64,000 nucleotides of DNA. It comes from Candidatus Omnitrophota bacterium. GTDB taxonomy: Bacteria; Omnitrophota; Gorgyraeia; Zapsychrales; Fredricksoniimonadaceae. The notes under the pieces are model-generated. The model had not been told where the DNA came from. It made no database searches and saw only the letters and a program-made list of their open reading frames with translations. The position numbers were made by a program, and so were the translations under genes. Shown piece by piece: positions 4,828 through 23,152 of this stretch. The stretch spans positions 5,528 to 69,527 of the forward strand of contig CAJARJ010000021.1 in the NCBI GenBank assembly GCA_903944345.1. The letters run 5' to 3'. Each line of letters begins with the position of its first letter. The first letter of the stretch is position 1.

Positions 4828-5998
4828 AAATATTCTTCGACAAATGACAGGTTTGCTGCGCGGGTTTGCAAAATATGACCAGCGTTGGCAGCTTGACGGA
4901 GCCCTGAGAAGTTATGAACAGATCCGGAAGCTTCCGGTCATGTCACGGGAAGATCTTTTTTCCCATGTTCTTAAGTATGGGCTGAAGAATGCCAGTAATA
5001 TTTCTGCGACATCGGGTTCTACGTCTTGCAGTGTGTTGATCGGACATAGTCTGGTGGCTTATCGTGCGCATTTAGAGCGGTTGGTGCGTCTTTATAAAAC
5101 TTTGCCTGTCGCGCGGGGCTCGTTGTGTCTGAATATGTGCTCGTATGCACTTAATGGCGGCGGAAGACTGATGGAGGCGGGATATAAGGGGGCAGGATAC
5201 AGGGTGGTTGCGCTTGGTCCGCTTGATATGGAGTTGAAGGCGGATGAATTGCGGAGGCTGGTGCGCTGCCTGCGTCCAGCAATGGTCAATGCTTATGCAA
5301 ATCAACTTTATGGATTATTTTCGGCCATTGGCCTGGACAATCACGGGATCAGGCTGTGCGTGGTTAATGGCGAACCCTTGCTGCGAAATTACAAGAAAAC
5401 AATTGAGCGTTCTGCCGGGGTTGAGGTCTTTAATCATTACGGGGCCATGGAAATCTCAGGATTGGCTCTAGCCCGACGTTCAGGTGATGTGTTTATGCGG
5501 GTTGAGCCGTACGGGCTTTTGCTGGAGGTTCTTAAGGATAACGGACAATCGGGGTTATCTGGAAGAGGGGCGCTGCTGGTTACAGATCTTTTTAATCGCA
5601 GTATGCCGGTCATTCGCTATCAAATTGGTGATCGGGTTGATCTGGTGCGAAGAGAAGATGGATTCTATATCAAGGTTCTTGGGCGTCAGAACGGGTCTTT
5701 TCTTTTTGACGGAGAGGTTTATGCCACGCAAGAGCTGGAAAGTGCGGTCGCAGAAGTTCTGGAGCATTGCGAGTATTATTTTGTGATCCGAAAGTCGGAG
5801 GACACGGGGAAAGACGCCATGGAGCTAAGGATAGTTGGAAGACAAGACAAAGGGCTTCTTGGCCGGCTGGAAAAGGTCATGATTGAGCGTTTTCGCTTTG
5901 GTCGGGCTGTGCGCGTGCTTGGTGTTTGTGCAGCCGTCCCGCGTACGATTACGGGGAAAATTCGCCGGATAATGGATTTACGGGAAAAAGATATATGA
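4808..5998 (+). CDS. PaaK/F390-synthetase-like adenylate-forming enzyme (ANL superfamily)
   Basis: AMP-binding P-loop-like motif ATSGSTS; C-terminal PRTITGKIRR block typical of phenylacetate-CoA ligase / CapK-like adenylating enzymes. Its stop overlaps the next start (ATGA). Confidence 0.55.
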   Translation: MRKKMDENILRQMTGLLRGFAKYDQRWQLDGALRSYEQIRKLPVMSREDLFSHVLKYGLKNASNISATSGSTSCSVLIGHSLVAYRAHLERLVRLYKTLPVARGSLCLNMCSYALNGGGRLMEAGYKGAGYRVVALGPLDMELKADELRRLVRCLRPAMVNAYANQLYGLFSAIGLDNHGIRLCVVNGEPLLRNYKKTIERSAGVEVFNHYGAMEISGLALARRSGDVFMRVEPYGLLLEVLKDNGQSGLSGRGALLVTDLFNRSMPVIRYQIGDRVDLVRREDGFYIKVLGRQNGSFLFDGEVYATQELESAVAEVLEHCEYYFVIRKSEDTGKDAMELRIVGRQDKGLLGRLEKVMIERFRFGRAVRVLGVCAAVPRTITGKIRRIMDLREKDI

Positions 5999-6996
5999 TC
6001 GCAGTGCATGCGCTCTTTATATATTTGACAGGACGTTGTCCGCTAAACTGTACCTATTGTTATTTGCGCAGACGTTCTGTGCGGGATTTATCCTGGCCGA
6101 CCGTTGTTCGAGTTCTGGATAGTATATCCAGAGATCTGGGGCTACCCCGGAAAATTGTTATCAGCGGCGGGGAGCCTTTTTTATGCTACCCAATGCTCAG
6201 AAAGCTTGCTCTGGAGGTGCGGCGGCGTTTTTCCTGGTTGCCTTTATCGGTGCAGAGCAACGGCTTGTTGCTGGACAAAAACAGGATCTCTTTCCTGAGG
6301 GCTGTGCAGGCCGGACTGGAAGTAGGGATAGATGGCAAAGAAGAGACTACGTTACGGCATCGTCGGGGACTTACCGGCAGTATTTATAACCGCCTTCTCG
6401 GAAATATTCGTGCTGCTGTCCGTTCAGGACTGTCGGTCAGTTGTACAATGACGGTTCATCCGGATCAGGTGGAGCATATGGAAGAGAATTTTATTTTTTT
6501 GAAATCCTTAGAATTGCGGTCAATTGACATCACCCCGGCCGCGTTTATGCTTTGGACGGACGCCTCGGTACGGGATTTCCGCAGGAATTACAGCCAGATT
6601 CTCCAGGGACAGTCAGGGCAAGGAAGGGTTCTGGTCGCGGAAGATAAGAATCTTTTTGGTGAAGCTTTCTTGGATCTTAGCGTCTACCCCGACGGAAGCG
6701 TGCTCTGTGGTGATGCCTATTCTTGTCTACCAGCCGGGGTCAAACGGGCCAGAAGCTTGGTTCTGCCATCGGGTCAGCTTGAAAAGAAACGGTTAAATTT
6801 TTTTGTCCGGCAGTATGCATCGCTTTGGAGGTCTGGGAGTTCTTGCAGTTACAGAGATTATGTCCGCAGGAGTTTCGAGATTGTGGATCGTTTGGCCGGA
6901 GGTGCTCTTGATGCGGGTCGGCTTAATGAAATGATGCGTTTTATAGGTGGGGCGAATTTGAGGTTGGTTTCAGCTGAAAGAATTTGTCCGGAATAA
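5995..6996 (+). CDS. Radical SAM protein; paralog of 22139..23152
   Basis: CPLNCTYC (CxxxCxxC) at the N-terminus when started at the internal ATG at 5995, which overlaps the upstream stop. GGEPFL SAM-binding motif; LSVQSNGL block shared with the 22139 gene. Confidence 0.8.
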   Translation: MIAVHALFIYLTGRCPLNCTYCYLRRRSVRDLSWPTVVRVLDSISRDLGLPRKIVISGGEPFLCYPMLRKLALEVRRRFSWLPLSVQSNGLLLDKNRISFLRAVQAGLEVGIDGKEETTLRHRRGLTGSIYNRLLGNIRAAVRSGLSVSCTMTVHPDQVEHMEENFIFLKSLELRSIDITPAAFMLWTDASVRDFRRNYSQILQGQSGQGRVLVAEDKNLFGEAFLDLSVYPDGSVLCGDAYSCLPAGVKRARSLVLPSGQLEKKRLNFFVRQYASLWRSGSSCSYRDYVRRSFEIVDRLAGGALDAGRLNEMMRFIGGANLRLVSAERICPE

Positions 6997-7687
6997 AAGA
7001 GTCTTGGTGTGGCCGCTTATCCATCAGCGTATAAACAGCGGTATTGGCACGCAGGATGTTGGACAGGGGTTGTTTGTGCCGACGTAGCTCAAAAGGTATG
7101 TCCAGGGTTGTGGCAATAAACGGCAGGGATATAAAGGGTGCGAGAAATCTCAGTTGATGGACAGCTGCTGCGCGGCGGTGCTGGATGAGGGAGATCGGTT
7201 CTTTGGCCAATAGAAGTTTCTTTAGGTATTTGTCGGAGGAGCATAGAACGTCATCGGCGCCCATACCGCTGAGAACCGTTTGGATGTCCTGTTGTTTCAT
7301 CAGGGTAAAAAGATGATCAGCGGCCGGCAGATATTGATCAAGGGAGTGTTGCCAGCGACGGCGTTGCAGAATTCTTAAATGTGCCTGGAAGATTTCCAGG
7401 CTAATGGGAACAGAATGGAAACGAAGAGACAGTCGACGGGCAAGATTACGACAGTGACGGATGGAGTGCTGGTTATAACTGGCGCAGGATGAGTCAAGAA
7501 TCTCGGCAAAATACAGTTCCGGGGACAGGTCTTGTGTGATGCAGGCAAGGGTGGTTGAGTCGATGCCGCCAGTAAAAAGAATTGCGATATGGCCTTTAGC
7601 GCAGCGGGGACGAATGGTTTGCTGCAGAACGGTTTCCAGTGATCGGCGTTCAGCGGGCGCAGATGAGGGTGAAGACTTGCTTATCAT
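6941..7687 (-). CDS. Asparagine-synthetase-like PP-loop (ATP pyrophosphatase) domain protein, short form
   Basis: AILFTGGIDSTTLA (SGGxDS PP-loop) and SGMGADDVL blocks as in the AsnB C-terminal synthetase domain. At 248 aa it has no N-terminal glutaminase domain. Confidence 0.5.
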   Translation of the reverse strand: MISKSSPSSAPAERRSLETVLQQTIRPRCAKGHIAILFTGGIDSTTLACITQDLSPELYFAEILDSSCASYNQHSIRHCRNLARRLSLRFHSVPISLEIFQAHLRILQRRRWQHSLDQYLPAADHLFTLMKQQDIQTVLSGMGADDVLCSSDKYLKKLLLAKEPISLIQHRRAAAVHQLRFLAPFISLPFIATTLDIPFELRRHKQPLSNILRANTAVYTLMDKRPHQDSFIPDKFFQLKPTSNSPHL

Positions 7688-7702
7688 GAAGGAAATTATA
7701 TC

Positions 7703-8416
7703 ATGCTTGCAGCGGTTGCCGCGCTGAAAAATGTGTTACAGGGTTGCATGCCTTGCGTAACGAGCAGACGCCGGATAGCCATCCTTTTTACGGGCGGACT
7801 GGATTCTACGGTACTAGCGGCTCTTGCTGCTCACCAGCGGCCTGTTTTGGTCTTTGGGGTCGTACTTGATCGGGATTGCCGGGTTTATAACGCCCGGTCT
7901 ATTCTGTATTCGCGGCGTATCGCCGCTATTCTGGGACTTACGTTTAAAACAATCGGGATAAGTCAGCGGGATTATCATGACGGAATAAGGGCGATGTTAT
8001 CAGCGGGCGTATATTCAAAAGACAGAGATTTGCCTGCGGCGGCTTTCCTTGTCAAAGCCCTACGAGCTCAGGGGGTGGGAGGGGTGGTGAGCGGTATGGG
8101 GAGTAATGAGCTTTTCTCTGCCAGTAAAAGAACGTTATCGATGATTCCAGAACTGCAGGCAGCTTACAGTGAACATCGCCTGCTGGGTCGCGCAGAAAAA
8201 ATTATCTTTCGAGCGCCTTTTCTTGAGGAGCCAGTCATAAAGGTTGTGCGTGGACTTGTGCGCTCGGGGCATGCGCGTACAGACGTTCTGGGAGCGCTTC
8301 TGGCCGGTTATCCGGATGTCTGCCGGCTGATGAAAAAGAGAGTGTCCGGACATTCTATGGTGCCTAAAAGATTCTTGCCGGTTCGGATGACAGTCGAACC
8401 AGAAAAGGGTGTATGA
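7703..8416 (+). CDS. Asparagine-synthetase-like PP-loop domain protein, short form
   Basis: AILFTGGLDSTVLA PP-loop and VSGMGSNELF block; 237 aa. It diverges from 6941..7687 with only ~15 nt between the annotated starts. Confidence 0.5.
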   Translation: MLAAVAALKNVLQGCMPCVTSRRRIAILFTGGLDSTVLAALAAHQRPVLVFGVVLDRDCRVYNARSILYSRRIAAILGLTFKTIGISQRDYHDGIRAMLSAGVYSKDRDLPAAAFLVKALRAQGVGGVVSGMGSNELFSASKRTLSMIPELQAAYSEHRLLGRAEKIIFRAPFLEEPVIKVVRGLVRSGHARTDVLGALLAGYPDVCRLMKKRVSGHSMVPKRFLPVRMTVEPEKGV

Positions 8417-9246
8417 GAAAATCTGTTATGCCTGGCATTCCTCCGCAGGAGGCTGTTACTGTTTACGGGGGGTATGTGCGATATTATCATTCAACCGAAT
8501 CATGTCGTGATTTGGCAAGGCTGGCCGAGGAACGCAAGCTAAAACAGGTTCTGGCCTGTTGTGGCGGAGGTGATCAGGCATTGACTCTTTTGGCCGGACT
8601 GGATAAAAAAGGAATCTTTTGGGCATTTGATCTTCAACCGGCTCAGTTGTTTGTGCTTGCGGCCAAAGCGCTTTATCTGCTGGAACGTAAAAGCCCTCCA
8701 TTTTATCCGTCCTTTTCTGTGATACAAAAGATGTATCCTGGCCGTATTTCTGCCCAGCCCCCGGATCGACGGAGAGTTGATCGATTATACGATGCCCGGC
8801 TTAAATGTTTTAGGGATCCGTTCAAAATGTTTCAGAAAAGATTTCTTTATGAATGCGACGGAGGATTGTTTGAGGACGGGCAGAGAACCCCATTCTGGTC
8901 CCGGGATCGGGATTACTGTCAGTGTATTTGCCGGAATATTGTCCGGCTCAGGCTTCTACGGGGAGATTTGTTCTATCTTGATCATTTTTTTAAACCGGCA
9001 ACAGTTGATTTGATATATGTGTCGGATATTTCTTTGGTTGCCGCCCAGGATTTCTTGTTGCAACGGATATCAGCGACTGTAGCCTTGTTGAGGCGAGGGG
9101 GGTGCCTGGCAGCTAATGCGGATTCCGGGGAGAGGTTTCTGGGAAATGGGATTTCGGTAGCTGATATGCTGGAGAGAAATTCTTCCCGACTGGGGCTAAT
9201 GGCTGGCGGGGTCAGCGGGGCGCTCAAAGTTTTTGAGAAGGCCTGA
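8413..9246 (+). CDS. DUF3419 / BtaA-like class-I SAM-dependent protein (homolog of 3-amino-3-carboxypropyl transferases); paralog of 18373..19296
   Basis: Blocks VLACCGGGDQALTLL, AFDLQPAQLFVL and DLIYVSDI resemble the BtaA/DUF3419 motifs VLSI(S/T)SAGCNxLxLL, AVDLNPxQ and LSNIxDW. GGYVRYY is conserved with the paralog. Confidence 0.45.
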   Translation: MRKSVMPGIPPQEAVTVYGGYVRYYHSTESCRDLARLAEERKLKQVLACCGGGDQALTLLAGLDKKGIFWAFDLQPAQLFVLAAKALYLLERKSPPFYPSFSVIQKMYPGRISAQPPDRRRVDRLYDARLKCFRDPFKMFQKRFLYECDGGLFEDGQRTPFWSRDRDYCQCICRNIVRLRLLRGDLFYLDHFFKPATVDLIYVSDISLVAAQDFLLQRISATVALLRRGGCLAANADSGERFLGNGISVADMLERNSSRLGLMAGGVSGALKVFEKA

Positions 9247-10660
9247 GCATGTGTCAGAGAAGGGCGCGTTAATGCGAGTAAGAAGAAAAAAGTTCGCTAT
9301 TCTGCAACTTATTCCCAAGCATCAGAACATGCTGCCGAATCAGTTGGTCAGAGCACTGTCTTTACTCAAATATCATCAGGTCGAATATGCTGTTTATGAT
9401 CTGGAGGCTTCGCTGGAGGCCGAGGCGGGGCAGGCGGTCGCTTCTCTTTTTGCAAAGATCAGGGAAGACGAGGTTGTTGTTTCCCTGGCTTGTCATTACA
9501 ATTATCCCAAATTGACCAGCCTAGTGCTTTTGTTTATGTACCAAGGCCTGTTGAAGGGCAAGCAGATTCATGTGTGTTCGCCGTATCTGTCTTTTTATCC
9601 GGTCAAACAGATTTGTTGCGAGAATATGTTTTTTCATTTTGTCGAGATCGATGAGTTTCTGGTTTCGTATTCAGGGTGGCCTTTTGTAGCTGAGGGCCTG
9701 TTGCTCAAGCCAATGGCTGAAGTTCTACGTGATCAGAATTACACGAATCGTGAATTCTGGACGCATCTGACCTGGGGGTGTCGTTCCTCCTGTTCTTTTT
9801 GTCATAATTGGGCGACAGCCAAGGGCAGAGAGCGGCTTGTCTATTCTGGGTACGATGAGGTGCTTTCCTTGATGCAGACGGCTCGTGCGCTTGGTGCGCG
9901 CAAATTTCAGTTTGCCGATCCTGACTTTCTGGGGGATGCTGCCTATGTTGGAGGGTTTCTTGAAAAGCTGACGGAGGCGGGTGGGTTCTTGCCCTGGCGA
10001 GCCAAGGCAAGGTTAGACAGGATCAATGAGTCAATGTATGAAAAAATGCTTGCTGCGGGGTGTGATCGTATATTCTTTGGTGTGGAGCATGTATCTTCTC
10101 GAATGTTAGACAGGGTCAATAAAGGTGAGAATACTCCGCGGCTGCTTTTGGACTTTATAAAATATTGGGGAACACGCGTGCAGCTCGATGTTTCTTTTCT
10201 CACAGGAATACGTGAAGAGACGGTGTCCGAGTTAAGAGAAAATATTCGTTATATATCCAGAATAGACAAGATTCGCGGGATAGAGGCTTATTTGGGGTAT
10301 GTGATTCTGTATTCCGGGTCTGCACGCAAAGTGGCTTTTAGCGATTATCTGGTGGCCTTTCTGCTGGTTTGCAATATGTTGCCCGAGGAATGGGAAATTG
10401 GGCAGGACTTTCTCAGAAGATTGTTGCAACTCTGTCAGCAAGAGCCCTTTTTTGGCTTTTTTATTCTTACCGAGAATGACCATAGTTTAGCGTTGTTCCA
10501 AGAACTGCTCCGGCAGAATAAGGCGGATATTGCGCCGGATTTTCTTTCAGATTTCGCCAGATTGTGGACATCGGTGGATGGGCGGCTCGCGAAGATTGTT
10601 GCGGGATCAAAGACGACAGGGGAGGTTAACCAAAAGATAGATCAATGGCTACTGAAGTAA
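9233..10660 (+). CDS. B12-binding-domain radical SAM protein (class B rSAM-like); paralog of 19289..20668
   Basis: WGCRSSCSFC cluster motif (CxxxCxFC) after a ~170-aa N-terminal domain consistent with a cobalamin-binding fold. FQFADPDFLGD block shared with the paralog (FKFRDPDFLGV). Confidence 0.65.
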   Translation: MRRPEHVSEKGALMRVRRKKFAILQLIPKHQNMLPNQLVRALSLLKYHQVEYAVYDLEASLEAEAGQAVASLFAKIREDEVVVSLACHYNYPKLTSLVLLFMYQGLLKGKQIHVCSPYLSFYPVKQICCENMFFHFVEIDEFLVSYSGWPFVAEGLLLKPMAEVLRDQNYTNREFWTHLTWGCRSSCSFCHNWATAKGRERLVYSGYDEVLSLMQTARALGARKFQFADPDFLGDAAYVGGFLEKLTEAGGFLPWRAKARLDRINESMYEKMLAAGCDRIFFGVEHVSSRMLDRVNKGENTPRLLLDFIKYWGTRVQLDVSFLTGIREETVSELRENIRYISRIDKIRGIEAYLGYVILYSGSARKVAFSDYLVAFLLVCNMLPEEWEIGQDFLRRLLQLCQQEPFFGFFILTENDHSLALFQELLRQNKADIAPDFLSDFARLWTSVDGRLAKIVAGSKTTGEVNQKIDQWLLK

Positions 10661-12237
10661 AACAAAACAATAAAAGTGGTTTTAGGGTTTCTACAGACGG
10701 CCTCTTTCTGCTGATGCAGCTTTGCGTTGCTTTGGGTGGCGGGCTGATCCTTGCCTGGGCATTAGCTGCCTGGGGAATCGGGATCAATAGTGATTCTGAG
10801 GCGTATCATGTTATGTCCCGGTGTTTGTCGGAGAAAGAGGGAGCTTTTAATGCTGTACCGGATTGTAAAACGCTGTCCCTGCATTTTCCTCCATTGTATC
10901 CGTTGCTAATTTCATTGATGCGTGGCTGGACCGAGAGTTTTATGGAGCGTTCGGCGGGATTGAATGTTTTTCTTTATTCGGGAAGCATTTTTGTTTCCGG
11001 AAGCTTGTTTAAAAGGCTTACCGGCTTGCCGTTTATGGGGCCCGCCGGAGCCCTGCTTGTTGCTGTTGCCCCGGTGGTTGTCAAGGCGCATACGGAAGCC
11101 ATGACTGAGGCCGTGTTTATATTCCTTACGTTGGCCGGCTTGTTCTTCTTTTTATGTTATTTGGAAAGAACCAGTTATTGGCGGTTGCTGGCAGCAGGGG
11201 TTCTCACCGGGTTATCGTTATTGTGCCGTTTTGCCGGACTGACTACCATTTTGGCGATGATGGTGACGATAGTTCTTTTTAAATCGCAACAAAGAAAGCC
11301 AGCGATTTTTGATTCTGTATTTTTTGTGCTGATAGCGTTGATGCCTATGGGGGGGTGGTGGATCAGGAATTTTTTTGATTACGGATTGTCGCTGGATCGG
11401 ATTGTTGTTTTTCATCCGCCAGGATGGTCTGGGTGGAGTGAGGCGTCCGGGGTTTTTTGTATGTGGCTCATGAGTCCGGTTTTCTGTTCTTTTATAAAAG
11501 AGATTGTTTTGTTGCTGGGATTCGTTGTTTTTTTTCTATTCTGCTGGCGGATTGGTAAGGCGCTGGCACTCAGGAACACAAAAGATACGGAAATTTTTCT
11601 TTTTTGGTCTTTTATGGCGGTTATGGCGATCTTGTTTTACCTGATTGGACTGGTGTTGACGATTTCCTGGCTGGACGGGTATATGACTTTGTCGCGAAGG
11701 TATTTGTTGCCGGTTTATGTTTTTGCAATGATCCTTTTTCCGGCATGGTTGCTCAGAAGAACGATCTGTTGCCAGGCGTCAGGCTCCTTGAGAGTGTTTC
11801 TGGGAAAGGTCTTACTTGTCTATTGGGTGTTTTTCAATTGTTCGGTTTCTGTTACCTGGTTGTGGCAGCAGCACTCACGCGGGAGTGGTTATGCGAGCCG
11901 TAACTGGCGGCAATCACCAACGATGCAGGAGCTCTGCCGACTGTCGCGTGAACATGTGATTTTCACCAACCTCAAGGCAGCAGCAGTAATTCATTCGGGT
12001 GCCCGCATATTTGAGATTCCGTGGTTGTCAGATCCGATGAACAGCCGCATGAATGCTCATTACCAGCAAGAACTAGAACAAATGGTGCGGCAGATAAAGG
12101 CGGGTAACGGCCTGCTGGTCTATTTCGATCAAGCTCCGAGTGACTTGCCGATTGAGTCTGCGCAGGTTCTGACGGAACGGTTGTCTTTGCGCATGGTGGC
12201 AAAGTTTGCTGACGGGGCGGTTTATTTGCCGGAATAA
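10645..12237 (+). CDS. GT-C-fold polytopic membrane glycosyltransferase-like protein (ArnT/PMT family-like)
   Basis: 530 aa with ~11-13 TM helices, an acidic first extracytoplasmic loop (INSDSEAYHV) and a ~110-aa hydrophilic C-terminal region, as in GT39/GT83 enzymes. It sits directly upstream of two Thr/Asn-rich secreted repeat proteins. Confidence 0.45.
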   Translation: MATEVKQNNKSGFRVSTDGLFLLMQLCVALGGGLILAWALAAWGIGINSDSEAYHVMSRCLSEKEGAFNAVPDCKTLSLHFPPLYPLLISLMRGWTESFMERSAGLNVFLYSGSIFVSGSLFKRLTGLPFMGPAGALLVAVAPVVVKAHTEAMTEAVFIFLTLAGLFFFLCYLERTSYWRLLAAGVLTGLSLLCRFAGLTTILAMMVTIVLFKSQQRKPAIFDSVFFVLIALMPMGGWWIRNFFDYGLSLDRIVVFHPPGWSGWSEASGVFCMWLMSPVFCSFIKEIVLLLGFVVFFLFCWRIGKALALRNTKDTEIFLFWSFMAVMAILFYLIGLVLTISWLDGYMTLSRRYLLPVYVFAMILFPAWLLRRTICCQASGSLRVFLGKVLLVYWVFFNCSVSVTWLWQQHSRGSGYASRNWRQSPTMQELCRLSREHVIFTNLKAAAVIHSGARIFEIPWLSDPMNSRMNAHYQQELEQMVRQIKAGNGLLVYFDQAPSDLPIESAQVLTERLSLRMVAKFADGAVYLPE

Positions 12238-12408
12238 AACCCGGCTAACTGGAGCATGAGAGGAATAGATATTCGTTATTGTCTGAAATGGTTATATTTA
12301 TAGCATTTCTTGCCTGGGAGCCAGCAAATGTATAGTATTCTTTCAGGAAAGGAGAATGGAAAGCCTTTTCTGTTTTGTCTCTGAGCAGCCAACATTGAGT
12401 GGTCTTGC

Positions 12409-12456: not shown

Positions 12457-13005
12457 ATGCTCAAACTATTGATTTCCATTGTTTTGTATTTTTTCTCGTG
12501 CGCAGCGGCTTGGTCGGAGGAAATTATTCTGACCACCTTTTATCCGCCCCCTAGCGGGCAGTTTTTGAATCTGACTGTGTTGGGCACTTTGGGTGTAGTG
12601 AACATCAATATTACGGGAACACTGACTATCGCCACTTTAAATGTCACGGGGAATGCTTCAGTTGGTGGAACTTTGAATGCTCGCAATACAACGCTTGGCG
12701 CAACGCTGAACGTGACCGGGGCCACAACTCTTGCCAGCACCCTGAGTGCCGGAGCCACCTCGATTAATGGGACATTGAACGTGAGTGGGCTAACAACGCT
12801 GGGTGCTCTGAGTGCTGCAGCCACCACGGTTAACGGGACTTTGAATGTGACCGGGGCCACCGTAATTACTGGCGCGTTAAATGCTCGGGCGACGACAGTT
12901 AACGGGACTCTGAATGTGAGCGGGGCCATGACCAGTGGTGGGATGTCCGCAGGAGGTTTTACGACAGCGGGGACAACCCAATGCGGTTCTTTGAATCTGT
13001 ATTGA
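12457..13005 (+). CDS. Secreted Thr/Asn/Gly-rich tandem-repeat protein (predicted beta-solenoid and/or glycoprotein)
   Basis: Signal peptide MLKLLISIVLYFFSCAAAWS, then conserved TTFYPPPSGQF, then repeats of the type (A/T)TT(I/V)NGTLNVTG(A/V)TTL. Most Asn lie in N-x-T sequons. Confidence 0.6.
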   Translation: MLKLLISIVLYFFSCAAAWSEEIILTTFYPPPSGQFLNLTVLGTLGVVNINITGTLTIATLNVTGNASVGGTLNARNTTLGATLNVTGATTLASTLSAGATSINGTLNVSGLTTLGALSAAATTVNGTLNVTGATVITGALNARATTVNGTLNVSGAMTSGGMSAGGFTTAGTTQCGSLNLY

Positions 13006-16501: not shown

Positions 16502-16916
16502 TCAGCAGCAAGCGCGCCCGAGAATTCCGCGTTCTCTGAGGCTATTTATCCGGGATGAAGAGGGGTTTGTCAGCAAAGAAACTATTTTGAATGTCGGATT
16601 GACGGCGATAGGTGTGGTCGGGCTGTTGGGAATTTCTTCTGATGTGGTCAATGCCGCGCACTCCAGTCACGCTTCACATTCCAGTTCCGGTGGCGAACAT
16701 GGCAGCACGACAATACCGGGGACAAGCTATGCCATGACCGCGCATATTAATGATGTTGTCTATCCCGCTACACCGGCCGGAGGATCCTGCATGGAGCTAA
16801 GTCCACCGACGCATTCCAATGTTGCGGCAACGCATTGCAACCGGGCGGCTGTGCATGGAAGCTCCATATCAACGCATACGAATGTTACGCCGCATGCAAA
16901 TCATGACTCGTATTAG
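16485..16916 (+). CDS. His-rich precursor-like protein A1 (His-Xaa-Ser/Asn triplets; HxsA-like)
   Basis: 143 aa. Basic N-region MKKKNNQQQARPRIPRSLRLFIRDEEGFVSKET, hydrophobic segment ILNVGLTAIGVVGLLGI, a VNA|AHS site, then a core AHSSHASHSSSGGEHG...GGSCMEL...THCN...HANHDSY with 11 His in 88 aa and 2 Cys. Confidence 0.65.
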   Translation: MKKKNNQQQARPRIPRSLRLFIRDEEGFVSKETILNVGLTAIGVVGLLGISSDVVNAAHSSHASHSSSGGEHGSTTIPGTSYAMTAHINDVVYPATPAGGSCMELSPPTHSNVAATHCNRAAVHGSSISTHTNVTPHANHDSY

Positions 16917-16932
16917 CAAAGCGAGAGGATAT

Positions 16933-17355
16933 ATGAAAATAGACAAGACCAAAAGCAGGATTTTCAAGGCCCCGCGGACGCTAAAAGGATTTCTTGACGG
17001 AGAAGATGGCTATGTCAGCAAGGAAGCTATTTTGAATGTCGGATTGGCCACGATTGGCGTTTTGGGGGTGATGGGATCTTTTTCCGACCCGGCTTATGCC
17101 GCGCACAGCAATCATGGTTCGCATAGCAATGGAGCCGGGACTTTTCATGCCAATGCCTCGGCAGGGCATGTCAATACGGCTGTGGCGCATAGTAATCTGC
17201 AGCATTATGATGATTTCCCATCCGGTGGGTGCCGCGAGTTGCTGCCGGATCACAACAATATTGCTGCGGCGCATTGCAATGTTGGGGCCACGCATTCCAA
17301 CATTCCGGGCACACATGGCAACACCAGCGGGCACGCCAATCATTCCTCGTATTGA
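16933..17355 (+). CDS. His-rich precursor-like protein A2, paralog of A1
   Basis: Start placed at the ATG at 16933, which has a GAGAGGA RBS (track ORF 16819 is a spurious 5' extension overlapping A1). N-region and hydrophobic segment ILNVGLATIGVLGVMG are near-identical to A1; AYA|AHS site; core AHSNHGSHSNGAG...GGCREL...AHCN...HANHSSY with 13 His in 87 aa and 2 Cys. Confidence 0.65.
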   Translation: MKIDKTKSRIFKAPRTLKGFLDGEDGYVSKEAILNVGLATIGVLGVMGSFSDPAYAAHSNHGSHSNGAGTFHANASAGHVNTAVAHSNLQHYDDFPSGGCRELLPDHNNIAAAHCNVGATHSNIPGTHGNTSGHANHSSY

Positions 17356-17426
17356 CAAGGCGAGAGAGATTGGAGTTTTGGTCAATAAACAGGCGTATTT
17401 TTTGACCATCAGCCAAAGGTTCTCGG

Positions 17427-18398
17427 ATGGATTTTCCATATCTTGATTCTGCTGATACCCCTCAGATTGCGGCATTATGGCTCAGGAACAATTATGCGCC
17501 CGCCGTTCCTCGAACCCAATTGATCGAGCATATTCGCTGGAAATATGATTCCCGACGAGCTGTGATTTACAGCCAAAGGGAAGAGGGCCGGATTTTTGCC
17601 ACAACAGGCTACTTAAAGGGATCTTTCTGCAATGGAAACAGCATTTTTAGTATTGGTTGGGGCATGGACTCTCTGATTGATGAGCCGTTAAGAGATGGTC
17701 GTGTGTTTGCCTTTATGCGTGTATTGCGCTCTACCATGCGTTCTGCCGAGCACGAAATTCTGGTTGCTTTTGCCAACAAGAACGTTCACGACACCTATTT
17801 ACGGATTGGTTTCCAGCCTTGGAATGGTTTTTTCTTTTATCAGGCAAAGCTGCAAGCCGGGATGGTGCTGCCAGTTCGACCCGACAGGGGGTTTGATCTT
17901 TTATGGAAAGATGAGCTGGATGTGTCGGGGGCTGAAGCTCTGTTCAGGCGAACGCAGGGGTTTTATCAGGGGATCAGTCCGAGAGACAAGGAATATCTGG
18001 ACTGGCGTTATGGTCAATGTCCTTTTCGTCGGCATGTGTTTCTGCATGTTTATCGGCAAAGGGTTTTGGTTGGATATTGTGCGGTACGCTTTGTTTTGCA
18101 ACCGGAATCGCGGACAGGCTATATTGTGGATCTTCTGGATTCTCCCGACGATGATGCCGTGCTGGAGGTTATGTTGCTGGAGCTTATGGCACGTTGCCGG
18201 CAGCGAGAAATTGCGCAGATCGAAACTGTTTTGACGAATGGGCGGATTTCACAGGGACTGTTGCGTTGTGGATTTTTTCGGCAGCAGCAGGAAACTGTGT
18301 TGGTGTGGCTGAAGAGTGACCGGGCACGCAGGTTTTTTGAACAGGGTTCGACAGGCATGCATTTGACGATGAGTGACGGCGATTATGATATGGAATAA
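17427..18398 (+). CDS. Hypothetical protein, possibly a GNAT-fold / FemAB-like acyltransferase
   Basis: 323 aa. The C-terminal half has a GNAT-like topology (VGYCAVRF...GYIVDLL...LELMARCRQREIAQIE); I recognised no diagnostic motif. Confidence 0.3.
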   Translation: MDFPYLDSADTPQIAALWLRNNYAPAVPRTQLIEHIRWKYDSRRAVIYSQREEGRIFATTGYLKGSFCNGNSIFSIGWGMDSLIDEPLRDGRVFAFMRVLRSTMRSAEHEILVAFANKNVHDTYLRIGFQPWNGFFFYQAKLQAGMVLPVRPDRGFDLLWKDELDVSGAEALFRRTQGFYQGISPRDKEYLDWRYGQCPFRRHVFLHVYRQRVLVGYCAVRFVLQPESRTGYIVDLLDSPDDDAVLEVMLLELMARCRQREIAQIETVLTNGRISQGLLRCGFFRQQQETVLVWLKSDRARRFFEQGSTGMHLTMSDGDYDME

Positions 18399-19296
18399 GT
18401 TAGGTAGTGGGCAAGGTTCGCAATGGCCCCGGAAGGAGAAGAGTATGGTTGGCGTTCACCGCAAGCCGCTGGATATAGAAGAAATGATGACAACGTGCGG
18501 CGGGTTTGTACGCTATTTTGGCACCAATGAACCGGTGTCGCATATTGCCAGTGTCCTGGAGAAAACAGTATTCCGTCGGGTTTTGGCTTGCTGTGGAGGA
18601 GGGGATCAGGCTTTGACATTGCTCGGGCTGGCGGGGCGCCCTTCAGAAATTTATGCGTTTGACATGAATCTGGCGCAGCTGTTTGTTCTGGCCTGCAAGG
18701 CCCAGCTCTTCAAGGATAAGAAAATGAAGACGTATGCTCCTTCTTTCGATCGGATCAGCCGGTTGAACATGGGAAGAATTCGCGCCCTTCCTAATGATGT
18801 TCGGCCCGTGGATACGCTGCTGACTATTCCAGGAGAAAGAAAGATTGCGCTGGAACATGTTTTTGCCGGCCGGTTTGGCTACGAGGTCGACACCGGGATG
18901 CACGATTTTCTCAAGAAGAATATTTACTGGGCAGATGATGCGCGTTTTATTTCCAGGATTCGTTCCGGATTGCCGGCGCTTAAAGGAATTCATTGTGATT
19001 TGCTTTCCTTGTCGGACTGGTTTGCGCCGGATTATCTCGATGTGATATATGTGTCGGATATCCCTTTGCACAATGCTATTCCTTATTATCTGGAAAGACT
19101 GCGTTGCCTGGTGGATTGTCTGGCGCCGGGTGGATTGTTTATTGGCAATCTGGAGGATCAGGCGGTTCTGGATCGCTGCCCGTCGGTGATTGAGGTGATG
19201 CGCAGTTATAAGGATTTGTTCGGGTTAGTGGAGTTCAGGAAAACAGGACAAATTCTGGCTTTACGCAAGGTGCGGCCTGTCAGAAGTATTGGATAA
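18373..19296 (+). CDS. DUF3419 / BtaA-like class-I SAM-dependent protein (paralog of 8413..9246)
   Basis: GGFVRYF, VLACCGGGDQALTLLGLAG, AFDMNLAQLFVL and LDVIYVSDIP blocks. Confidence 0.45.
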   Translation: MTAIMIWNKLGSGQGSQWPRKEKSMVGVHRKPLDIEEMMTTCGGFVRYFGTNEPVSHIASVLEKTVFRRVLACCGGGDQALTLLGLAGRPSEIYAFDMNLAQLFVLACKAQLFKDKKMKTYAPSFDRISRLNMGRIRALPNDVRPVDTLLTIPGERKIALEHVFAGRFGYEVDTGMHDFLKKNIYWADDARFISRIRSGLPALKGIHCDLLSLSDWFAPDYLDVIYVSDIPLHNAIPYYLERLRCLVDCLAPGGLFIGNLEDQAVLDRCPSVIEVMRSYKDLFGLVEFRKTGQILALRKVRPVRSIG

Positions 19297-20668
19297 AAGA
19301 ACGATGCCCCGAGAAATTGCTGTCATTTTTTTTGCGCAGGATGACCGTGTTGTGCCGGTGGATTTGGTTGAGGCCATTGCCTGGTTGGAACAGTCGGGAA
19401 TCAGGCACAAGCTTTACATGCCGGCACGCGGGAAAAGAGGCAGCTGGCGGCAAGCTGTTGCTGAAACTTTGAGCGGAGTCCAGGCGGATGAAGTGTTTGT
19501 ATGTTTTTTGAATGAAAATCATTATCTGGCAACAGCGTCTTTACTTCAGCTGGTCTTTTGTGCAGAGTTTCTCGGGGATAGAGATATTCATGTCTGCCTG
19601 CCGGCTTTAAGTTTGTTTAGGGGGCGGCCTGCGTTGCGGGGGCGTTTTGTCTGGCACGCAAAGAAACTGACGCAGGTTCTTGGTGAACGGCTGGACGGGT
19701 TGAAAAAAGAGCGGTTATTCTCACCGGAAGTCCTTGCCGATGTCACGGTTCGTCTCGGATACAGAAGACAGATCCTTTCGGCTCTCTGGTCGCCGGGGTG
19801 CGGGCACAGCTGTTCGTTTTGTTTTTCCCGTGACAACGGAGAAATGATTGAGCCTGATGCCGGCATTCGTCAGGAAAAACTAGTTTTTCTGCTTGAGCTG
19901 GCGCGTTTAACCGAAGCAAGTTGTTTTAAATTTCGTGATCCTGACTTTCTGGGAGTTCCCGCTAACGCCTGGGAGGCGTTGCGGATTCTTGGTTCTGTCG
20001 CTCCGGGTACAGCGTTTAGATGTAACGCACGACTGGAAGACCTCAATAGAGAGGCACTTGTGCGTCTTGCGGACGCCGGATGCTCCCAGGTATTTTCCGG
20101 TGTGGAGCATGTTTCGATGCGCCTGGTGGAGGCGACAGGAAAACAGGAGAAAGTTCTCGGTCTATTAGCGGGCGTGTTGGCCCATAAACCCCGCAAGATG
20201 GATCTTGCCTTGTCTTTTCTGGCCGGCCTTCCGGGAGAGACCTTGCCGGAGGCGAAGGATAATTTGTGTTTGATCAGGAAGTTAATGAAGTTGAAGGGGG
20301 TTAAACCATATCTTGGGTATTATGTTTTGTTTGCCCAAGAGGTCCGGTCAGGGGCTTTTTTCGATCCCTTGCTGGCTTGCCTGAATTTTTCGGCGATTGT
20401 TCCCGAGGGCATGTTTCTGGATTATCAGGATTATTGTGGCCTGCTAAAGACAGTTAGAGAAGATGCTTTTTTCAGTTTTTTTGCTGCTGCCCTTAATCGA
20501 AACAGCGCTGAGGTTATTCGAATGTTGCTGCGCGAATTTAGCGCGGACGCATGCTTGTCTGAGTGCATGCCGATGGCTAGAAAACTGCTTCTGTTGCGCC
20601 CGGAGCTGGCCAATAGAATAATGAGTGAGCTTGGTGCGCCAACGTTTTTGTGCAGGGGGGCTGTGTGA
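19289..20668 (+). CDS. B12-binding-domain radical SAM protein (paralog of 9233..10660)
   Basis: PGCGHSCSFC cluster motif after a ~165-aa N-terminal domain; FKFRDPDFLG and FSGVEHVSMRL blocks shared with the paralog. Confidence 0.65.
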   Translation: MDKRTMPREIAVIFFAQDDRVVPVDLVEAIAWLEQSGIRHKLYMPARGKRGSWRQAVAETLSGVQADEVFVCFLNENHYLATASLLQLVFCAEFLGDRDIHVCLPALSLFRGRPALRGRFVWHAKKLTQVLGERLDGLKKERLFSPEVLADVTVRLGYRRQILSALWSPGCGHSCSFCFSRDNGEMIEPDAGIRQEKLVFLLELARLTEASCFKFRDPDFLGVPANAWEALRILGSVAPGTAFRCNARLEDLNREALVRLADAGCSQVFSGVEHVSMRLVEATGKQEKVLGLLAGVLAHKPRKMDLALSFLAGLPGETLPEAKDNLCLIRKLMKLKGVKPYLGYYVLFAQEVRSGAFFDPLLACLNFSAIVPEGMFLDYQDYCGLLKTVREDAFFSFFAAALNRNSAEVIRMLLREFSADACLSECMPMARKLLLLRPELANRIMSELGAPTFLCRGAV

Positions 20669-22155
20669 TCAGATTGGCTGTTGACAAAAAAGTTTCATTG
20701 TCCTCTCTGTGCCCGAAACAGGATTTTTTCGAGGTTCTCAATGGAGCCGGTATCGCGGCTTTTGATGAGCGCGGTTTTTTTAATCGTGTTTATGCGCGGG
20801 AGGCCCTGGAGCTTTATCAGCGGCACGAATTGGGGGCTCTCAGGCAGATAGCCAGCCGGGGGGCAGTGCTTGTTTGTGATGAGGTTCGACAGAGACTGTT
20901 TCTTGTGGCAGACAGCGCCGGGCATTCGACTTTTTATTATCTGTTGCGGCAGGGAGAGCTGATTTTTTCCAGTCGGCTTCAGGAACTGGATGAGTATTTT
21001 CGTTTTGACTTGAGTGAACGCTCTACCGATGAATATCTGGCCTGTGGTTTCATAAGTTCTCCGTTGACCGTTTTTGATGGTGTAGGAAAACTTCCTCCCG
21101 GAGGATATTTATTGCTTGAAAATGGCCGGGTTCAGGTTTCTGTTTGTCGAAAGACAAAGATTCCTGCCAGCGATAAAGTATCGGATAACTATCAACGAGA
21201 GCTTGAGGCTGCTTTTGAGAGTTGCCTGGCTCGAACGGCGGATGCTCCGTCCGGGTTGATGCTCAGCGGTGGTTACGATTCTTCTCTTTTAGGGGAGCTT
21301 CTATTGCGCCGTTACGGTCGGCTGCGGACCTGGGTCGTTGATATGATGGGGTATAATGCGGCAACTGTCCGTCAAGCCCAGGAAATGTCGCGCATTCTGG
21401 GGACAGACCATTCTTGTATTCCGGTGAGTGCCCGTGATTATATGGGATATTTCAGAAAGGCGCTCGGATTGGTTGAGGAACCGCTGCTTGACCTGGATTT
21501 TCCGGTTATTCGTCAGGCGGTGCTGGCGATAGGGAACAAGGCCCAATATGTTTGGCATGGATTTGGCAGTGACGAGGTTTTGGGAGAAAGGGTTATTGAT
21601 TTCAAGGGGGCGCTTACTCTTTTTGCCGCACAAAAAGGGAGGTCATCCTGGAAAGGGAAGATATCTGTGCGTCAGATCGGGCAGGCTTTTCTTGCCACCA
21701 AAGTTCCCCAGGAATTGCGGGCGCATTATCGTTTATGCGAAGCAAGCGGAACTTGCCTGGTTTTTCCGTTTTTTGAACCGGAACTGATTAGTGTGGCAGC
21801 CCGGATGCCAATTAATCTGATGAAAAATAAACGGCTTCTACGAGGGATGTCTTCCCGTCTTCATCAGCTTCTGCCTGTGCAGCCAAGAGAGGAGCGGGGG
21901 CAGATGCCGGCGCTGATCAAGCATGTGCTGATTGAAGGGCACAAGGAGTCCTTGCTGGCGGACAGTTTTCTGGCAGTTTTTATAAAGAAGAACGGCGCTT
22001 CTGCAATTTTTGAGCGCAAGAGTGAAGATTTGCTTTTACGGATGATAGTTTTTCTTGTCTGGAAGCAGGAAAGAGATCGTCGCTTGTCGCTGGTTTTTTT
22101 TGACCCGCGGAGTTCGGGGGCCAGCAGGGGAGAAATAAGTGTTGCCCGCGATTGA
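20650..22155 (+). CDS. Asparagine synthetase (AsnB)-like amidotransferase homolog, full length
   Basis: 501 aa; PP-loop LMLSGGYDSSLLGELL at ~residue 205; HGFGSDEVLGE block. The N-terminus MQGGC is not a canonical Cys-2 Ntn glutaminase start, so it may be a non-glutaminase family member as in lasso-peptide-cyclase-type AsnB homologs. Confidence 0.6.
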   Translation: MQGGCVIRLAVDKKVSLSSLCPKQDFFEVLNGAGIAAFDERGFFNRVYAREALELYQRHELGALRQIASRGAVLVCDEVRQRLFLVADSAGHSTFYYLLRQGELIFSSRLQELDEYFRFDLSERSTDEYLACGFISSPLTVFDGVGKLPPGGYLLLENGRVQVSVCRKTKIPASDKVSDNYQRELEAAFESCLARTADAPSGLMLSGGYDSSLLGELLLRRYGRLRTWVVDMMGYNAATVRQAQEMSRILGTDHSCIPVSARDYMGYFRKALGLVEEPLLDLDFPVIRQAVLAIGNKAQYVWHGFGSDEVLGERVIDFKGALTLFAAQKGRSSWKGKISVRQIGQAFLATKVPQELRAHYRLCEASGTCLVFPFFEPELISVAARMPINLMKNKRLLRGMSSRLHQLLPVQPREERGQMPALIKHVLIEGHKESLLADSFLAVFIKKNGASAIFERKSEDLLLRMIVFLVWKQERDRRLSLVFFDPRSSGASRGEISVARD

Positions 22156-23152
22156 TCATGTCTGGATATTCATTACCGGCCGGTGTAATGTGCGTTGTGA
22201 GCATTGTTTTTTTGCACACAAATCGGAGCGCCTGCGTTTGTCAAGTCGTTCGCAGGACGCTCTGTTTCGCTTTCTGTCTGCTGCCGGCAAGAAACAATTC
22301 ATTATCTCGGGAGGTGAGCCGTTTATGGTATGGCCGGCCACACGCGCGCTGCTACTGCGGATCAGGCAGGCGTATCCGCAGGCGTATTTGTCTGTCCAGT
22401 CTAACGGGTTAATGATGAAGCCGGGACATTTGGTTACGCTTAAATCAATGCGGGCGAATCTGGAGCTTGGCATAGATGGTGATGAGGCGGCGGTGGCCGC
22501 CAGTCGGCGGGGGTTGCCGAGGGGCGGCTTTCAGAGGTTATGCGCATCTTTGTCAGCTGCGCGGACGGCAGGGGTTGGTCTGAGCACAACCATGACAGTC
22601 ACTCCGCAAAATGTGGCGAATTTATCGGATAATTTTATGGCGTTGCTTGGCTTGCGCGCGCGCGCGATTGAGATTCATCCGGCTTTTATGGCGCAGTGGC
22701 GGCGGGCAGAAAGCAGGCTTTTTTTGCAGGGATACCGTCGCGCCCTTGCCAGCGAACTACGAATGGGAGAGCGGGGACTGATTAGCAGGGAATACAGCCT
22801 GCCAGCCAAAGGGGTTTGGGATATGGTTATTCTTCCTGACGGGAAGGTGCTTGCGAACTGGACCTTTTTGTCATTCCCGGAGCATGTGCGTGAACAATTT
22901 GTGGTGATGGATTTATCAAAGAGGGATGGAGAATTCTTGCCGGCGGCGAAGAGCTATTTTTCCGCCTTGCGCAAGTTTCTCGGGCAAGGTTCTGCTCCGG
23001 TTTCGTATCGCCGTTTAAGTAATTTTAATGCCTCTCTGGCCATTTCTGCCTGGGGGAATCCGCAGTCCGGACGATGTTTTAAGGAGTATGTCCGCTTGTG
23101 CGATGAGATTGAGCAGATTGATCTTGCAACCATAAGGAGACGGCCCGCATGA
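22139..23152 (+). CDS. Radical SAM protein (paralog of 5995..6996)
   Basis: ITGRCNVRCEHC cluster motif; SGGEPFM and LSVQSNGL blocks. Confidence 0.8.
   Translation: MLPAIDHVWIFITGRCNVRCEHCFFAHKSERLRLSSRSQDALFRFLSAAGKKQFIISGGEPFMVWPATRALLLRIRQAYPQAYLSVQSNGLMMKPGHLVTLKSMRANLELGIDGDEAAVAASRRGLPRGGFQRLCASLSAARTAGVGLSTTMTVTPQNVANLSDNFMALLGLRARAIEIHPAFMAQWRRAESRLFLQGYRRALASELRMGERGLISREYSLPAKGVWDMVILPDGKVLANWTFLSFPEHVREQFVVMDLSKRDGEFLPAAKSYFSALRKFLGQGSAPVSYRRLSNFNASLAISAWGNPQSGRCFKEYVRLCDEIEQIDLATIRRRPA

Follow-up and report, generated by a model that had tools for sequence, protein, structure and literature searches.

Two anciently diverged front ends and one common back end in an HXS-linked radical SAM gene cluster of Candidatus Omnitrophota

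Contig CAJARJ010000021.1 of a Candidatus Omnitrophota genome (GenBank assembly GCA_903944345.1) harbors a gene cluster of about 33 kb, rich in radical S-adenosylmethionine (SAM) enzymes, which was analyzed in a stretch of 64,000 nucleotides (positions 5,528 to 69,527 of the forward strand), hereafter the window, and which starts about 2.7 kb upstream of the window and reaches as far as 28.7 kb within it. The cluster is composed of two anciently diverged, variable front ends in tandem and one common back end, and all that is truly repeated in it as a unit is a gene encoding a class I methyltransferase-fold protein together with the gene of a radical SAM enzyme of class-B architecture. We hypothesize that these two pairs are tailoring steps acting on different substrates, and this reading, taken as a whole, has in our estimation a slightly better than even chance of being correct. 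A first-pass annotation of the window had described a duplicated module of four enzymes (a radical SAM enzyme, an AsnB-like enzyme, a BtaA-like protein and a B12-radical SAM enzyme) flanking a precursor/maturase core. In the literature on Omnitrophota and radical SAM enzymes nothing was found that describes this cluster.

Organization of the cluster

The first front end begins upstream of the window with a set of HXS-type genes (HxsD'-HxsB'-HxsA') and continues, after further genes, with an ApbA reductase, a PaaK-like ligase, the radical SAM enzyme rSAM_A, the PP-loop proteins PP1 and PP2, the methyltransferase-like (MT-like) protein MT_A, its radical SAM partner B12_A and a GT-C glycosyltransferase. 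The second consists of two secreted repeat proteins, the HXS-like set HxsD-HxsC-HxsB-HxsA1-HxsA2, a 323-residue protein (u323), MT_B, B12_B and a glutaminase-less AsnB-like enzyme. Both are followed by the back end, formed by rSAM_B, a DegT aminotransferase, three radical SAM (rSAM)/SPASM enzymes and a GT-B glycosyltransferase (GT28). All nine open reading frames (ORFs) named in the first-pass annotation exist where it had placed them, and they are given here with their likely starts.

5995..6996, plus strand: rSAM_A, radical SAM enzyme (PF04055, E 5.5e-18; CPLNCTYC) with neither a SPASM domain nor an N-terminal extension
6941..7687, minus strand: PP1, PP-loop ATP pyrophosphatase of the Asn-synthase family, 248 residues (TGGIDS; PF00733, E 1.4e-10)
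7703..8416, plus strand: PP2, PP-loop protein, 237 residues (TGGLDS; PF00733, E 1.9e-11)
8413..9246, plus strand: MT_A, class I SAM-methyltransferase-fold protein of a small Omnitrophota family (GGxVRY, ACCGGGDQ, DxxPAQLF, DLIYxSDI)
9272..10660, plus strand: B12_A, radical SAM enzyme (CRSSCSFC) with an N-terminal Rossmann-like domain, a class-B architecture
18445..19296, plus strand: MT_B, B-type paralogue of MT_A; the ORF opens at GTG 18373; identical to P0029 from Met25
19289..20668, plus strand: B12_B, B-type paralogue of B12_A (CGHSCSFC)
20650..22155, plus strand: AsnB-like enzyme (AsnB_B), 501 residues (SGGYDS; PF00733, E 2.8e-15), with a truncated, nucleophile-less N-terminal domain
22139..23152, plus strand: rSAM_B, radical SAM enzyme (CNVRCEHC) in a conserved rSAMb-DegT pair, not specific to the second of the two proposed modules

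In pairwise blastp comparisons, rSAM_A and rSAM_B share 34% identity over 253 residues (E 3e-46), MT_A and MT_B 34% over 266 residues (E 2e-43), B12_A and B12_B 29% over 411 residues (E 3e-42), and PP1 and PP2 30% (E 5e-24). The paralogy described for the first three pairs is thus full-length, and the identities of 29-34% lie far above the 20% outside motifs that the first-pass annotation had taken as the mark of a merely generic resemblance; the shared blocks LSVQSNGL, GGxVRY, VLACCGGGDQALTLL and FxFxDPDFLG are likewise present. The Pfam family Radical_SAM is found in 5995-6996, 9233-10660, 19289-20668 and 22139-23152, and Asn_synthase in 6941-7687 (minus strand), 7703-8416 and 20650-22155. 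The AsnB-like enzyme, which had also been credited with a clear paralogue in the other module, does not bear this out: PP1 and PP2 match it only weakly (E 9e-5 and 4e-4) and nowhere but in the PP-loop domain, and these short proteins are, to judge by their sequences, of another lineage than the 501-residue protein. At the DNA level, the two regions share only patches of 30-39 nucleotides over conserved motifs, so nothing here was recently duplicated and a recent duplication of DNA was rejected. Pairs of paralogues are a general trait of the cluster, as in the tandem rSAM/SPASM genes after DegT.

Conservation in related loci

The genes of 25 related loci beyond the window were laid against the window proteins. 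In the commonest arrangement (type I; L004, L005, L009, L013, L020, L021, L023 and L032) the order is HxsD-HxsB-HxsA ... GT28 ... MT-rSAM(B12-like)-ApbA-PaaK-rSAMa-rSAMb-DegT-rSAM-rSAM-GT28, the last gene on the minus strand. These loci hold one MT-rSAM pair, yet orthologues of rSAM_A (33-38% identity) and rSAM_B (36-40%) stand in them side by side, and the tandem PaaK-rSAMa-rSAMb-DegT, which occurs in about ten single-pair loci, is listed for L004, L005, L009, L013, L020, L021 and L032. Type II loci (L008, and L006 = L011 = L027) follow the order u323-MT(b)-(rSAM)-...-AsnB-...-rSAMb-DegT-rSAMs, with MT proteins 50-67% identical to MT_B versus 36-38% to MT_A and with AsnB-like orthologues of 32-45% identity (45% in L006, 32% in L008); ApbA, PaaK and rSAMa are absent from them. 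The right half of the window matches type II, and the left half holds the genes specific to type I. The gene for rSAMa adjoins PaaK in L004, L005, L013, L020, L021, L032 and L016, and the B12-like gene adjoins ApbA in L004, L009, L013, L020, L023, L024 and L026, while rSAMb and DegT are adjacent in every locus showing both genes and are present in every cluster type. rSAM_B therefore belongs to the common rSAMb-DegT back end, and rSAM_A goes with the PaaK-like ligase.

Neighbor-joining trees with bootstrap, computed with capped distances in the case of the rSAM and B12 proteins, place the A and B copies with orthologues of other species and not with each other, so that the phylogeny proposed in the first-pass annotation for dating a duplication points to an old split. 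In the MT tree, the A clade has 99% and the B clade 100% bootstrap (MT_B with P0027 and L008); in the B12 tree, B12_B groups with L008 (86%) and B12_A with L007 and the main clade. These groupings indicate that the A/B split of the MT proteins and their rSAM partners predates the separation of these species. In the rSAM tree, rSAM_A joins the 'a' copies (92% bootstrap) and rSAM_B the 'b' copies, and the two clades share the CxxxCxxC cysteines only. Their separate clades and their tandem position in single-pair loci argue that rSAM_A and rSAM_B are old, separate and non-equivalent genes, ancient paralogues and not the halves of a duplicated module. With a gene order that is not colinear and paralogues that are not mutual closest relatives, a block duplication of the four-gene module was not recovered.

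The B-type pair occurs in L008 and A-type pairs in L007, L017 and L018, and both are found together only in the species of the window and in L016, a relative of about 80% identity. Compared with L016, the ratio of nonsynonymous to synonymous substitution rates (dN/dS) is 0.15 for MT_A, 0.18 for B12_A, 0.03 for MT_B, 0.10 for B12_B, 0.20 for PP1 and 0.25 for PP2, and purifying selection acts on every gene of both sets (0.03-0.25). Decay of one copy was accordingly rejected for the window and L016. Both copies being kept by selection fits two specificities rather than a decaying duplicate. Of the two rounds or two specificities that had been proposed, the latter are consistent with these values and with the separate HXS set that each pair has (see below), and the former found no support.

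The methyltransferase-fold proteins

MT_A (277 residues) and MT_B (283 residues from its likely start, ATG 18445) show a Rossmann-like seven-stranded fold of the class I SAM-dependent methyltransferases, with a motif I rich in glycine and, following strand 2, an acidic residue, and a structure search with the MT-like protein returned the generic class I methyltransferase fold only. The label 'BtaA-like' holds as far as a remote relation to the N-terminal SAM-binding part of DUF3419, and no further. No Pfam match at all was obtained for MT_A (8413-9246); MT_B matches DUF3419 (PF11899) with 21.4 bits (E 1.6e-4), below the gathering threshold of 28.2 bits and over profile positions 26-83 of about 385 only. 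Within the MT-like family, 17 of the 29 members reach PF11899, and these only at E<0.1 (best E 5e-5), and in an exhaustive profile search nine of the ten next-best outgroup proteins pass it (30-59 bits), over their N-terminal 80-110 residues or so only. From these profiles, the MT-like proteins appear remotely related to the DUF3419 N-terminus. They resemble BtaA, the SAM:diacylglycerol 3-amino-3-carboxypropyl transferase, in the N-terminal SAM-binding region (motif I and the D-x-x-P-A-Q helix), but they stay below the gathering score, match about 60-110 of the 385 profile positions and are shorter than the roughly 400 residues of DUF3419/BtaA proteins.

The family is small: it forms 29 clusters at 90% identity, and a search of 1.84 billion clusters at 50% identity gave 12 representatives at E<1e-30. 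Of nine genome hits, six are titled Omnitrophota or Omnitrophica metagenome-assembled genomes (MAGs) and three 'uncultured Planctomycetales' MAGs, and the family appears confined to Omnitrophota-type MAGs.

In 20 of 21 informative cases, an MT gene adjoins a gene for an rSAM enzyme of class-B architecture. Only the species of L006/L011/L027 (AM4_bin-704) departs from this; in it, MT(b) is directly followed by the AsnB-like gene and the rSAM gene is cleanly lost, leaving a gap of about 180 bp with an ORF of 57 residues. In L021 an independent extra MT copy follows the pair (MT-rSAM-MT).

The MT gene always precedes its partner, and the spacing in the window is tight, as had been noted; the start/stop overlap reported with it is less certain. 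The likely start of B12_A is ATG 9272, which is preceded by the sequence GAGAAGGG, resembling a ribosome-binding site, and was chosen by the gene callers, with TTG 9233 as the alternative. The junction then measures +25 nucleotides in A and -8 or +7 in B, compared with an overlap of 4 nucleotides in relatives; with likely starts at 9272 and 18445, the junctions are tight and overlap is not certain.

The radical SAM partners

The MT-partnered rSAM enzymes carry a CxxxCxxC core behind an N-terminal Rossmann-type domain. The name 'B12-rSAM' thus describes their architecture, but the B12-binding signature is not detectable: PF02310 was found neither in B12_A and B12_B nor in any other MT-partnered member of the family, which show PF04055 only. 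More distant relatives of this rSAM family do carry PF02310. With this missing signature and a divergent N-terminal domain, the family differs from the cobalamin-dependent class B rSAM methyltransferases TsrM, CysS, MgmA and TokK. The best NCBIfam match of B12_A is ApyD, an enzyme of ribosomally synthesized and post-translationally modified peptides (RiPPs), at E 1.3e-11, far below the cut-off and over the rSAM core only. Word-indexed homologue searches with B12_A returned 5-18 proteins and missed 'main-clade' orthologues of 35-39% identity that the scans of loci recovered.

The closest likeness of the family is to AprD4, which, like ArsL, has a Rossmann-related domain and yet is cobalamin-free (PMC12931638). 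AprD4 acts with the NADPH reductase AprD3 as the radical SAM 1,2-diol dehydratase of apramycin biosynthesis (PDB 6fd2), and type I relatives recall this deoxygenation logic in that the rSAM gene is followed by an ApbA-family ketoreductase gene within an aminotransferase/glycosyltransferase cluster. Nevertheless, the identity to AprD4 is only 18% (NF033070, 36.7 bits with a cut-off of 500), the reductase is of another family, AprD4 has no obligatory methyltransferase-fold partner and, in the window, ApbA lies 4.4 kb from B12_A. In the arsinothricin system, a class I SAM methyltransferase gene adjoins the rSAM gene and ArsL acts together with the methyltransferase ArsM (PMC8552651; bioRxiv 10.1101/2024.02.01.577332). 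B12_A matches the ArsL model at E 1.3e-5, but with 24.6 bits against a cut-off of 450; B12_B does not match the model, the window has no arsenic context, and its MT proteins are DUF3419-related and not ArsM.

In an independent assembly of the same region (L002; JGI 3300045717), which otherwise equals window positions 3150-19245, one extra A follows position 9936. It lies outside any homopolymer and shifts the frame of B12_A just past the DPDFLG motif, as an assembly error or a natural knock-out variant.

The PP-loop and AsnB-like enzymes and rSAM_A/rSAM_B

The PP-loop motif SGGxDS is kept in AsnB_B, PP1 and PP2. Aligned with E. coli AsnB, the AsnB-like protein and its L006 and L008 orthologues are seen to have lost Cys-1 together with some 100 N-terminal residues of the glutaminase domain; in PP1 and PP2 the whole N-terminal domain is absent. 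None of the three reaches the cut-off of 267 bits for glutamine-hydrolyzing AsnB (TIGR01536), the scores being 88.7, 38.3 and 41.2. AsnB-like enzymes that lack the glutaminase are typically found where lactams are formed in lasso and other peptides. As in the lasso-peptide and macrolactam cyclases (NF033535, NF033561), the ATP site is kept and the Cys nucleophile lost, but the matches are weak (18-37 bits, the cut-offs being 300-525), the N-terminal domain is missing from PP1 and PP2, and the window holds no lasso precursor or B-protein.

PP1 is the sole minus-strand gene inside a long plus-strand operon; its start lies 15 nucleotides from that of PP2, and at their 3' ends PP1 and rSAM_A overlap by 56 nucleotides. 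The arrangement looks as if one member of a tandem pair had been inverted in place, and PP1 is intact in L016 (83% amino acid identity).

A SPASM domain (PF13186) was not hit in rSAM_A or rSAM_B, and an N-terminal leader-recognition extension is also absent from them. Against the PapB-like model (NF047865) they score 78 and 54 bits, with a cut-off of 340.

HXS sets and secreted repeat proteins

The genes between the two enzyme sets form an HXS-like set in the order D-C-B-A-A, preceded by two secreted repeat proteins.

12457..13005, plus strand: secreted repeat protein 1, with a signal peptide and NxT/S-rich 'TLNVTG' repeats
13090..13644, plus strand: secreted repeat protein 2; the ORF opens at 13009, and ATG 13090 gives a signal peptide
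13654..14091, plus strand: HxsD-like protein (PF27806 match; TIGR03976, 35.2 bits against a cut-off of 50)
14122..15111, plus strand: HxsC-like radical SAM protein (NF038332, 131 bits; TIGR03977, 95.5 bits against 267.9; both below cut-off)
15092..16501, plus strand: HxsB-like radical SAM/SPASM maturase (TIGR03978, 368.9 bits against a cut-off of 370, E 3.5e-110)
16485..16916, plus strand: HxsA1, HxsA-like His-rich protein (HSSHASHSS..., ending in HDSY; NF038309, 39.9 bits against 65)
16933..17355, plus strand: HxsA2, HxsA-like His-rich protein (ending in HSSY; NF038309, 33.2 bits)

In E. coli, HXS is an antiphage system that needs only four genes and whose HxsA is matured by rSAM enzymes; 99.7% of known systems are in Pseudomonadota, and 99.6% are arranged as HxsD-HxsB-HxsC-HxsA (Li et al., Nat Commun 2026, PMC13128918; TIGR03976-03978). 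The core of the window resembles it in encoding HxsD-, HxsC-, HxsB- and HxsA-like proteins, the last with H-x-S repeats. It differs in its D-C-B-A-A order, in two HxsA copies without a recognizable peptidoglycan-binding domain, in HxsC, HxsD and HxsA scores well below the cut-offs, in a second set upstream without HxsC and in its place inside an enzyme cluster of more than 25 kb in Omnitrophota. PADLOC, with a 2023 library that has no HXS model, gave generic viperin-type rSAM hits only.

That second set lies on the same contig, upstream of window position 1, at 6154-8500 of L034 (the same contig, mapped through the DUF2334 gene, L034 10001 being window 1104 and window position 1 about L034 8898). 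It comprises HxsD' (PF27806, 135 residues), an ORF of 78 residues, HxsB' (476 residues) and HxsA' (90 residues, ending in HCSY), and the cluster is bordered on its left by genes of the glutamyl/glutaminyl-tRNA synthetase family (PF00749). The statement that the two modules flank the core is thus right as to the HXS-like set between them and incomplete as to the HxsD-HxsB-HxsA set just outside the window; in the lineage of the window, each MT-rSAM pair follows an HXS set of its own.

The three HxsA-like proteins (16485-17355; L034 8228-8500) all end in (D/S/C)-S-Y and carry H-C-(N/S) motifs. HxsA1 (143 residues) and HxsA2 (140 residues) are about 50 residues longer than the HxsA proteins of 88-94 residues in single-pair relatives. 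They share 44-51% identity, and the two repeat proteins 51-61%. The latter were found only in the window lineage and L016; their content of N-x-T/S sequons is extremely high, and they are possible acceptors of glycosylation by the adjoining GT-C enzyme; a long, spurious antisense ORF runs over the repeat region (13173-13622).

Proposed function and alternatives

The neighboring genes suggest amino-sugar or glycan tailoring: the window holds genes of the DegT family, GT-B and GT-C glycosyltransferases and DUF2334/deacetylase proteins, and MBOAT and APH/choline-kinase genes are found in relatives. To our knowledge, all DegT-family enzymes characterized so far act on keto-sugars or inososes. We may hypothesize that each MT/rSAM pair constitutes a two-protein, SAM-consuming tailoring step, in which the rSAM member would start with a radical H-abstraction, probably independent of cobalamin as in AprD4 or ArsL, and the MT-fold member would alkylate the same intermediate with a group derived from SAM, methyl or other. 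In each front end, an enzyme that adenylates carboxylates (the PaaK-like ligase and short PP-loop proteins in A, the AsnB-like enzyme in B) may form an amide without glutamine hydrolysis. The A and B versions are expected to serve two different substrates or branches, and not two rounds on one. The DegT/glycosyltransferase/deacetylase back end would produce the intermediate, most likely an amino-sugar or a glycan unit, and a final periplasmic transfer could be carried out by the GT-C enzyme, with the HxsA-like proteins or the NxT/S-rich secreted repeat proteins as possible acceptors.

Several observations weigh against this proposal. With the exception of the ApbA subfamily model, no protein of the cluster reaches a curated NCBIfam cut-off, and the best matches of rSAM_A and rSAM_B are peptide-modifying rSAM families (PapB at E 6e-22, HxsB, YhhB). 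Together with the recurrent HXS linkage, these matches mean that the substrate could be a peptide and not a sugar. The linkage itself is not universal, given that L007, L017 and L018, of the A clade, have an MT-rSAM pair with no HXS set nearby. The MT tree, in which A and B are sisters, and the B12 tree, in which B lies outside A and the main clade, are not fully congruent, and duplication followed by loss is not separable in these trees from a merger of two cluster types. Furthermore, HxsB' and the HxsB of the window are 59-61% identical to each other and other species' HxsB 51-55% identical to either copy, which suggests that the HXS duplication is younger than the MT/rSAM split.

Unlikely, in our view, though the most serious of the alternatives, is that the MT-rSAM pairs, rSAM_A and rSAM_B and the PP-loop enzymes are protein or RiPP tailoring enzymes whose direct targets are the His-rich HxsA-like proteins (modified, for example, through radical C-methylation or cross-linking, through alkylation and through amidation), with one enzyme set for each HXS set, and that the sugar genes form a separate pathway alongside. 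The best NCBIfam matches of rSAM_A and rSAM_B are to peptide maturases (PapB, YhhB, AmcB, HxsB/HxsC) and that of B12_A to ApyD, and the AsnB-like enzyme is of the glutaminase-less kind common in lasso and peptide lactam formation; all those matches, however, fall far below the family cut-offs and cover the rSAM core only, and the SPASM domain or N-terminal leader-recognition extension is missing from rSAM_A and rSAM_B. In L005, L008, L009, L013, L023 and L032 the MT-rSAM pair has an HXS set on its own strand, 6-8 kb upstream, and after the duplication each HXS set again precedes such a pair, but A-clade relatives have no set nearby, and the genes are interleaved and translationally coupled with those for DegT, glycosyltransferases and deacetylases. 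HxsA is known to be matured by rSAM enzymes, yet HXS in E. coli does with four genes (PMC13128918).

It is less probable still that the enzymes belong to a surface-glycan or small-molecule pathway functionally unlinked to HXS and joined to it by inherited synteny, with the second MT-rSAM pair as a tailoring step from a laterally transferred cluster variant. The glycan-type gene content, the very fluid gene order between species, the absence of HXS near the pairs of L007, L017 and L018 and the self-contained four-gene nature of HXS elsewhere (PMC13128918) are in line with it. On the other hand, the enzyme genes stand on the same strand as HXS and nearly contiguous with it in at least seven species, the association was re-created for both sets in the lineage of the window, and the intergenic distances from HXS genes into enzyme genes are short or negative.

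The original proposal of a block duplication followed by shuffling, with the same chemistry performed twice or on two HxsA or two repeat-protein substrates, is improbable, and for the rSAM and PP-loop members it has for the most part been refuted: that three enzyme types are full-length paralogues, that the same lineage has two HxsA and two repeat proteins and that both copies are under purifying selection speaks for it, but rSAM_A and rSAM_B have tandem orthologues in separate clades in single-pair loci, the PP-loop proteins are not orthologous to the AsnB-like enzyme, colinearity and DNA similarity are both lacking, A-type and B-type pairs each occur alone in other species, and HxsA1/HxsA2 and the two repeat proteins are far more alike than MT_A and MT_B.

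A bolder version of the tailoring scheme, to which we give only a very slim chance, would combine the DUF3419/BtaA-related SAM-binding protein and the cobalamin-free, ArsL/AprD4-like rSAM enzyme into a new two-protein SAM-alkyl transferase that makes a diphthamide-like modification of HXS histidines. A 3-amino-3-carboxypropyl group would be added and then amidated or methylated, the glutaminase-less PP-loop enzymes would perform the amidation, and the two enzyme sets would serve the two HXS sets. If this were true, Omnitrophota would have a radical tailoring pathway of their own, dedicated to elaborating a known antiphage effector.

The MT-rSAM pair lends itself to testing, as a clean candidate for a new reaction of two enzymes that depends on SAM, since the MT-like family is tiny, seemingly confined to Omnitrophota-type MAGs and nearly always accompanied by one divergent rSAM enzyme of class-B architecture. 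The cluster also carries the recently characterized HXS antiphage system into a distant, uncultured phylum, and the repeated linkage of HXS to a large set of radical SAM and glycosylation genes hints at further tailoring of HxsA-type effectors. For genome mining, it follows that apparent 'duplicated modules' of rSAM-rich clusters should be taken for duplications only after a comparison with relatives that have a single copy.

Other genes of the cluster

The remaining genes of the cluster are as follows.

1..1102, minus strand: 3' part of a radical SAM gene (466 residues; L034 8599-9999, minus strand; PF04055) that runs off the 5' end of the window
1104..1856, plus strand: DUF2334/polysaccharide-deacetylase-like protein (PF10096, E 5e-10; PF01522, E 7e-5), recurring in L006, L007, L018 and L029
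1786..3726, minus strand: polytopic membrane protein of 646 residues without a family match, 82% conserved in L016
3808..4827, plus strand: ApbA/PanE-family NAD(P)H ketoreductase (PF02558, PF08546; TIGR00745, 148.7 bits, above the cut-off of 141), an A-side accessory
4808..5998, plus strand: PaaK/CapK-like adenylate-forming ligase (NF045666, E 2e-13; TIGR02155, E 8e-13; both below cut-off)
10645..12237, plus strand: GT-C membrane glycosyltransferase, PMT_2/ArnT-like (PF13231, E 5e-7; NF047440, E 3e-9, below cut-off)
17427..18398, plus strand: u323, protein of 323 residues that travels with B-type MT genes
23149..24261, plus strand: pyridoxal phosphate-dependent aminotransferase of the DegT/DnrJ/EryC1 family (NCBIfam PseC, WecE, LegC and DesI, E 1e-44 to 1e-49, below cut-off)
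24258-25376, 25373-26350 and 26289-27344, plus strand: three radical SAM/SPASM-twitch enzymes (PF04055, PF13186; no NCBIfam cut-off reached)
27382..28728, minus strand: GT-B glycosyltransferase (Glyco_tran_28_C; PF04101, E 6e-9) that closes the cluster

The radical SAM gene of 466 residues lies between the upstream HXS set and the rest of the cluster. GT-C homologues are found in L005, L006 and L008. No Pfam, NCBIfam or PDB relative was found for u323, whose orthologues stand directly or closely upstream of MT(b) in L006 (43%) and L008 (29%). The DegT gene is the best conserved of the cluster, with 56-61% identity across species. The first two rSAM/SPASM genes (24258-26350) are tandem paralogues (29% identity, E 3e-38), the first of which is absent from type I relatives, and the GT-B gene has the same position and strand in L004, L006, L009, L029 and L032.

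In the window as a whole, every 2-kb bin shows a positive GC skew (0.09-0.26) and the plus strand carries nearly all of the long ORFs; two of great length lie at 49395-53663 (1422 residues) and 53691-57818 (1375 residues).

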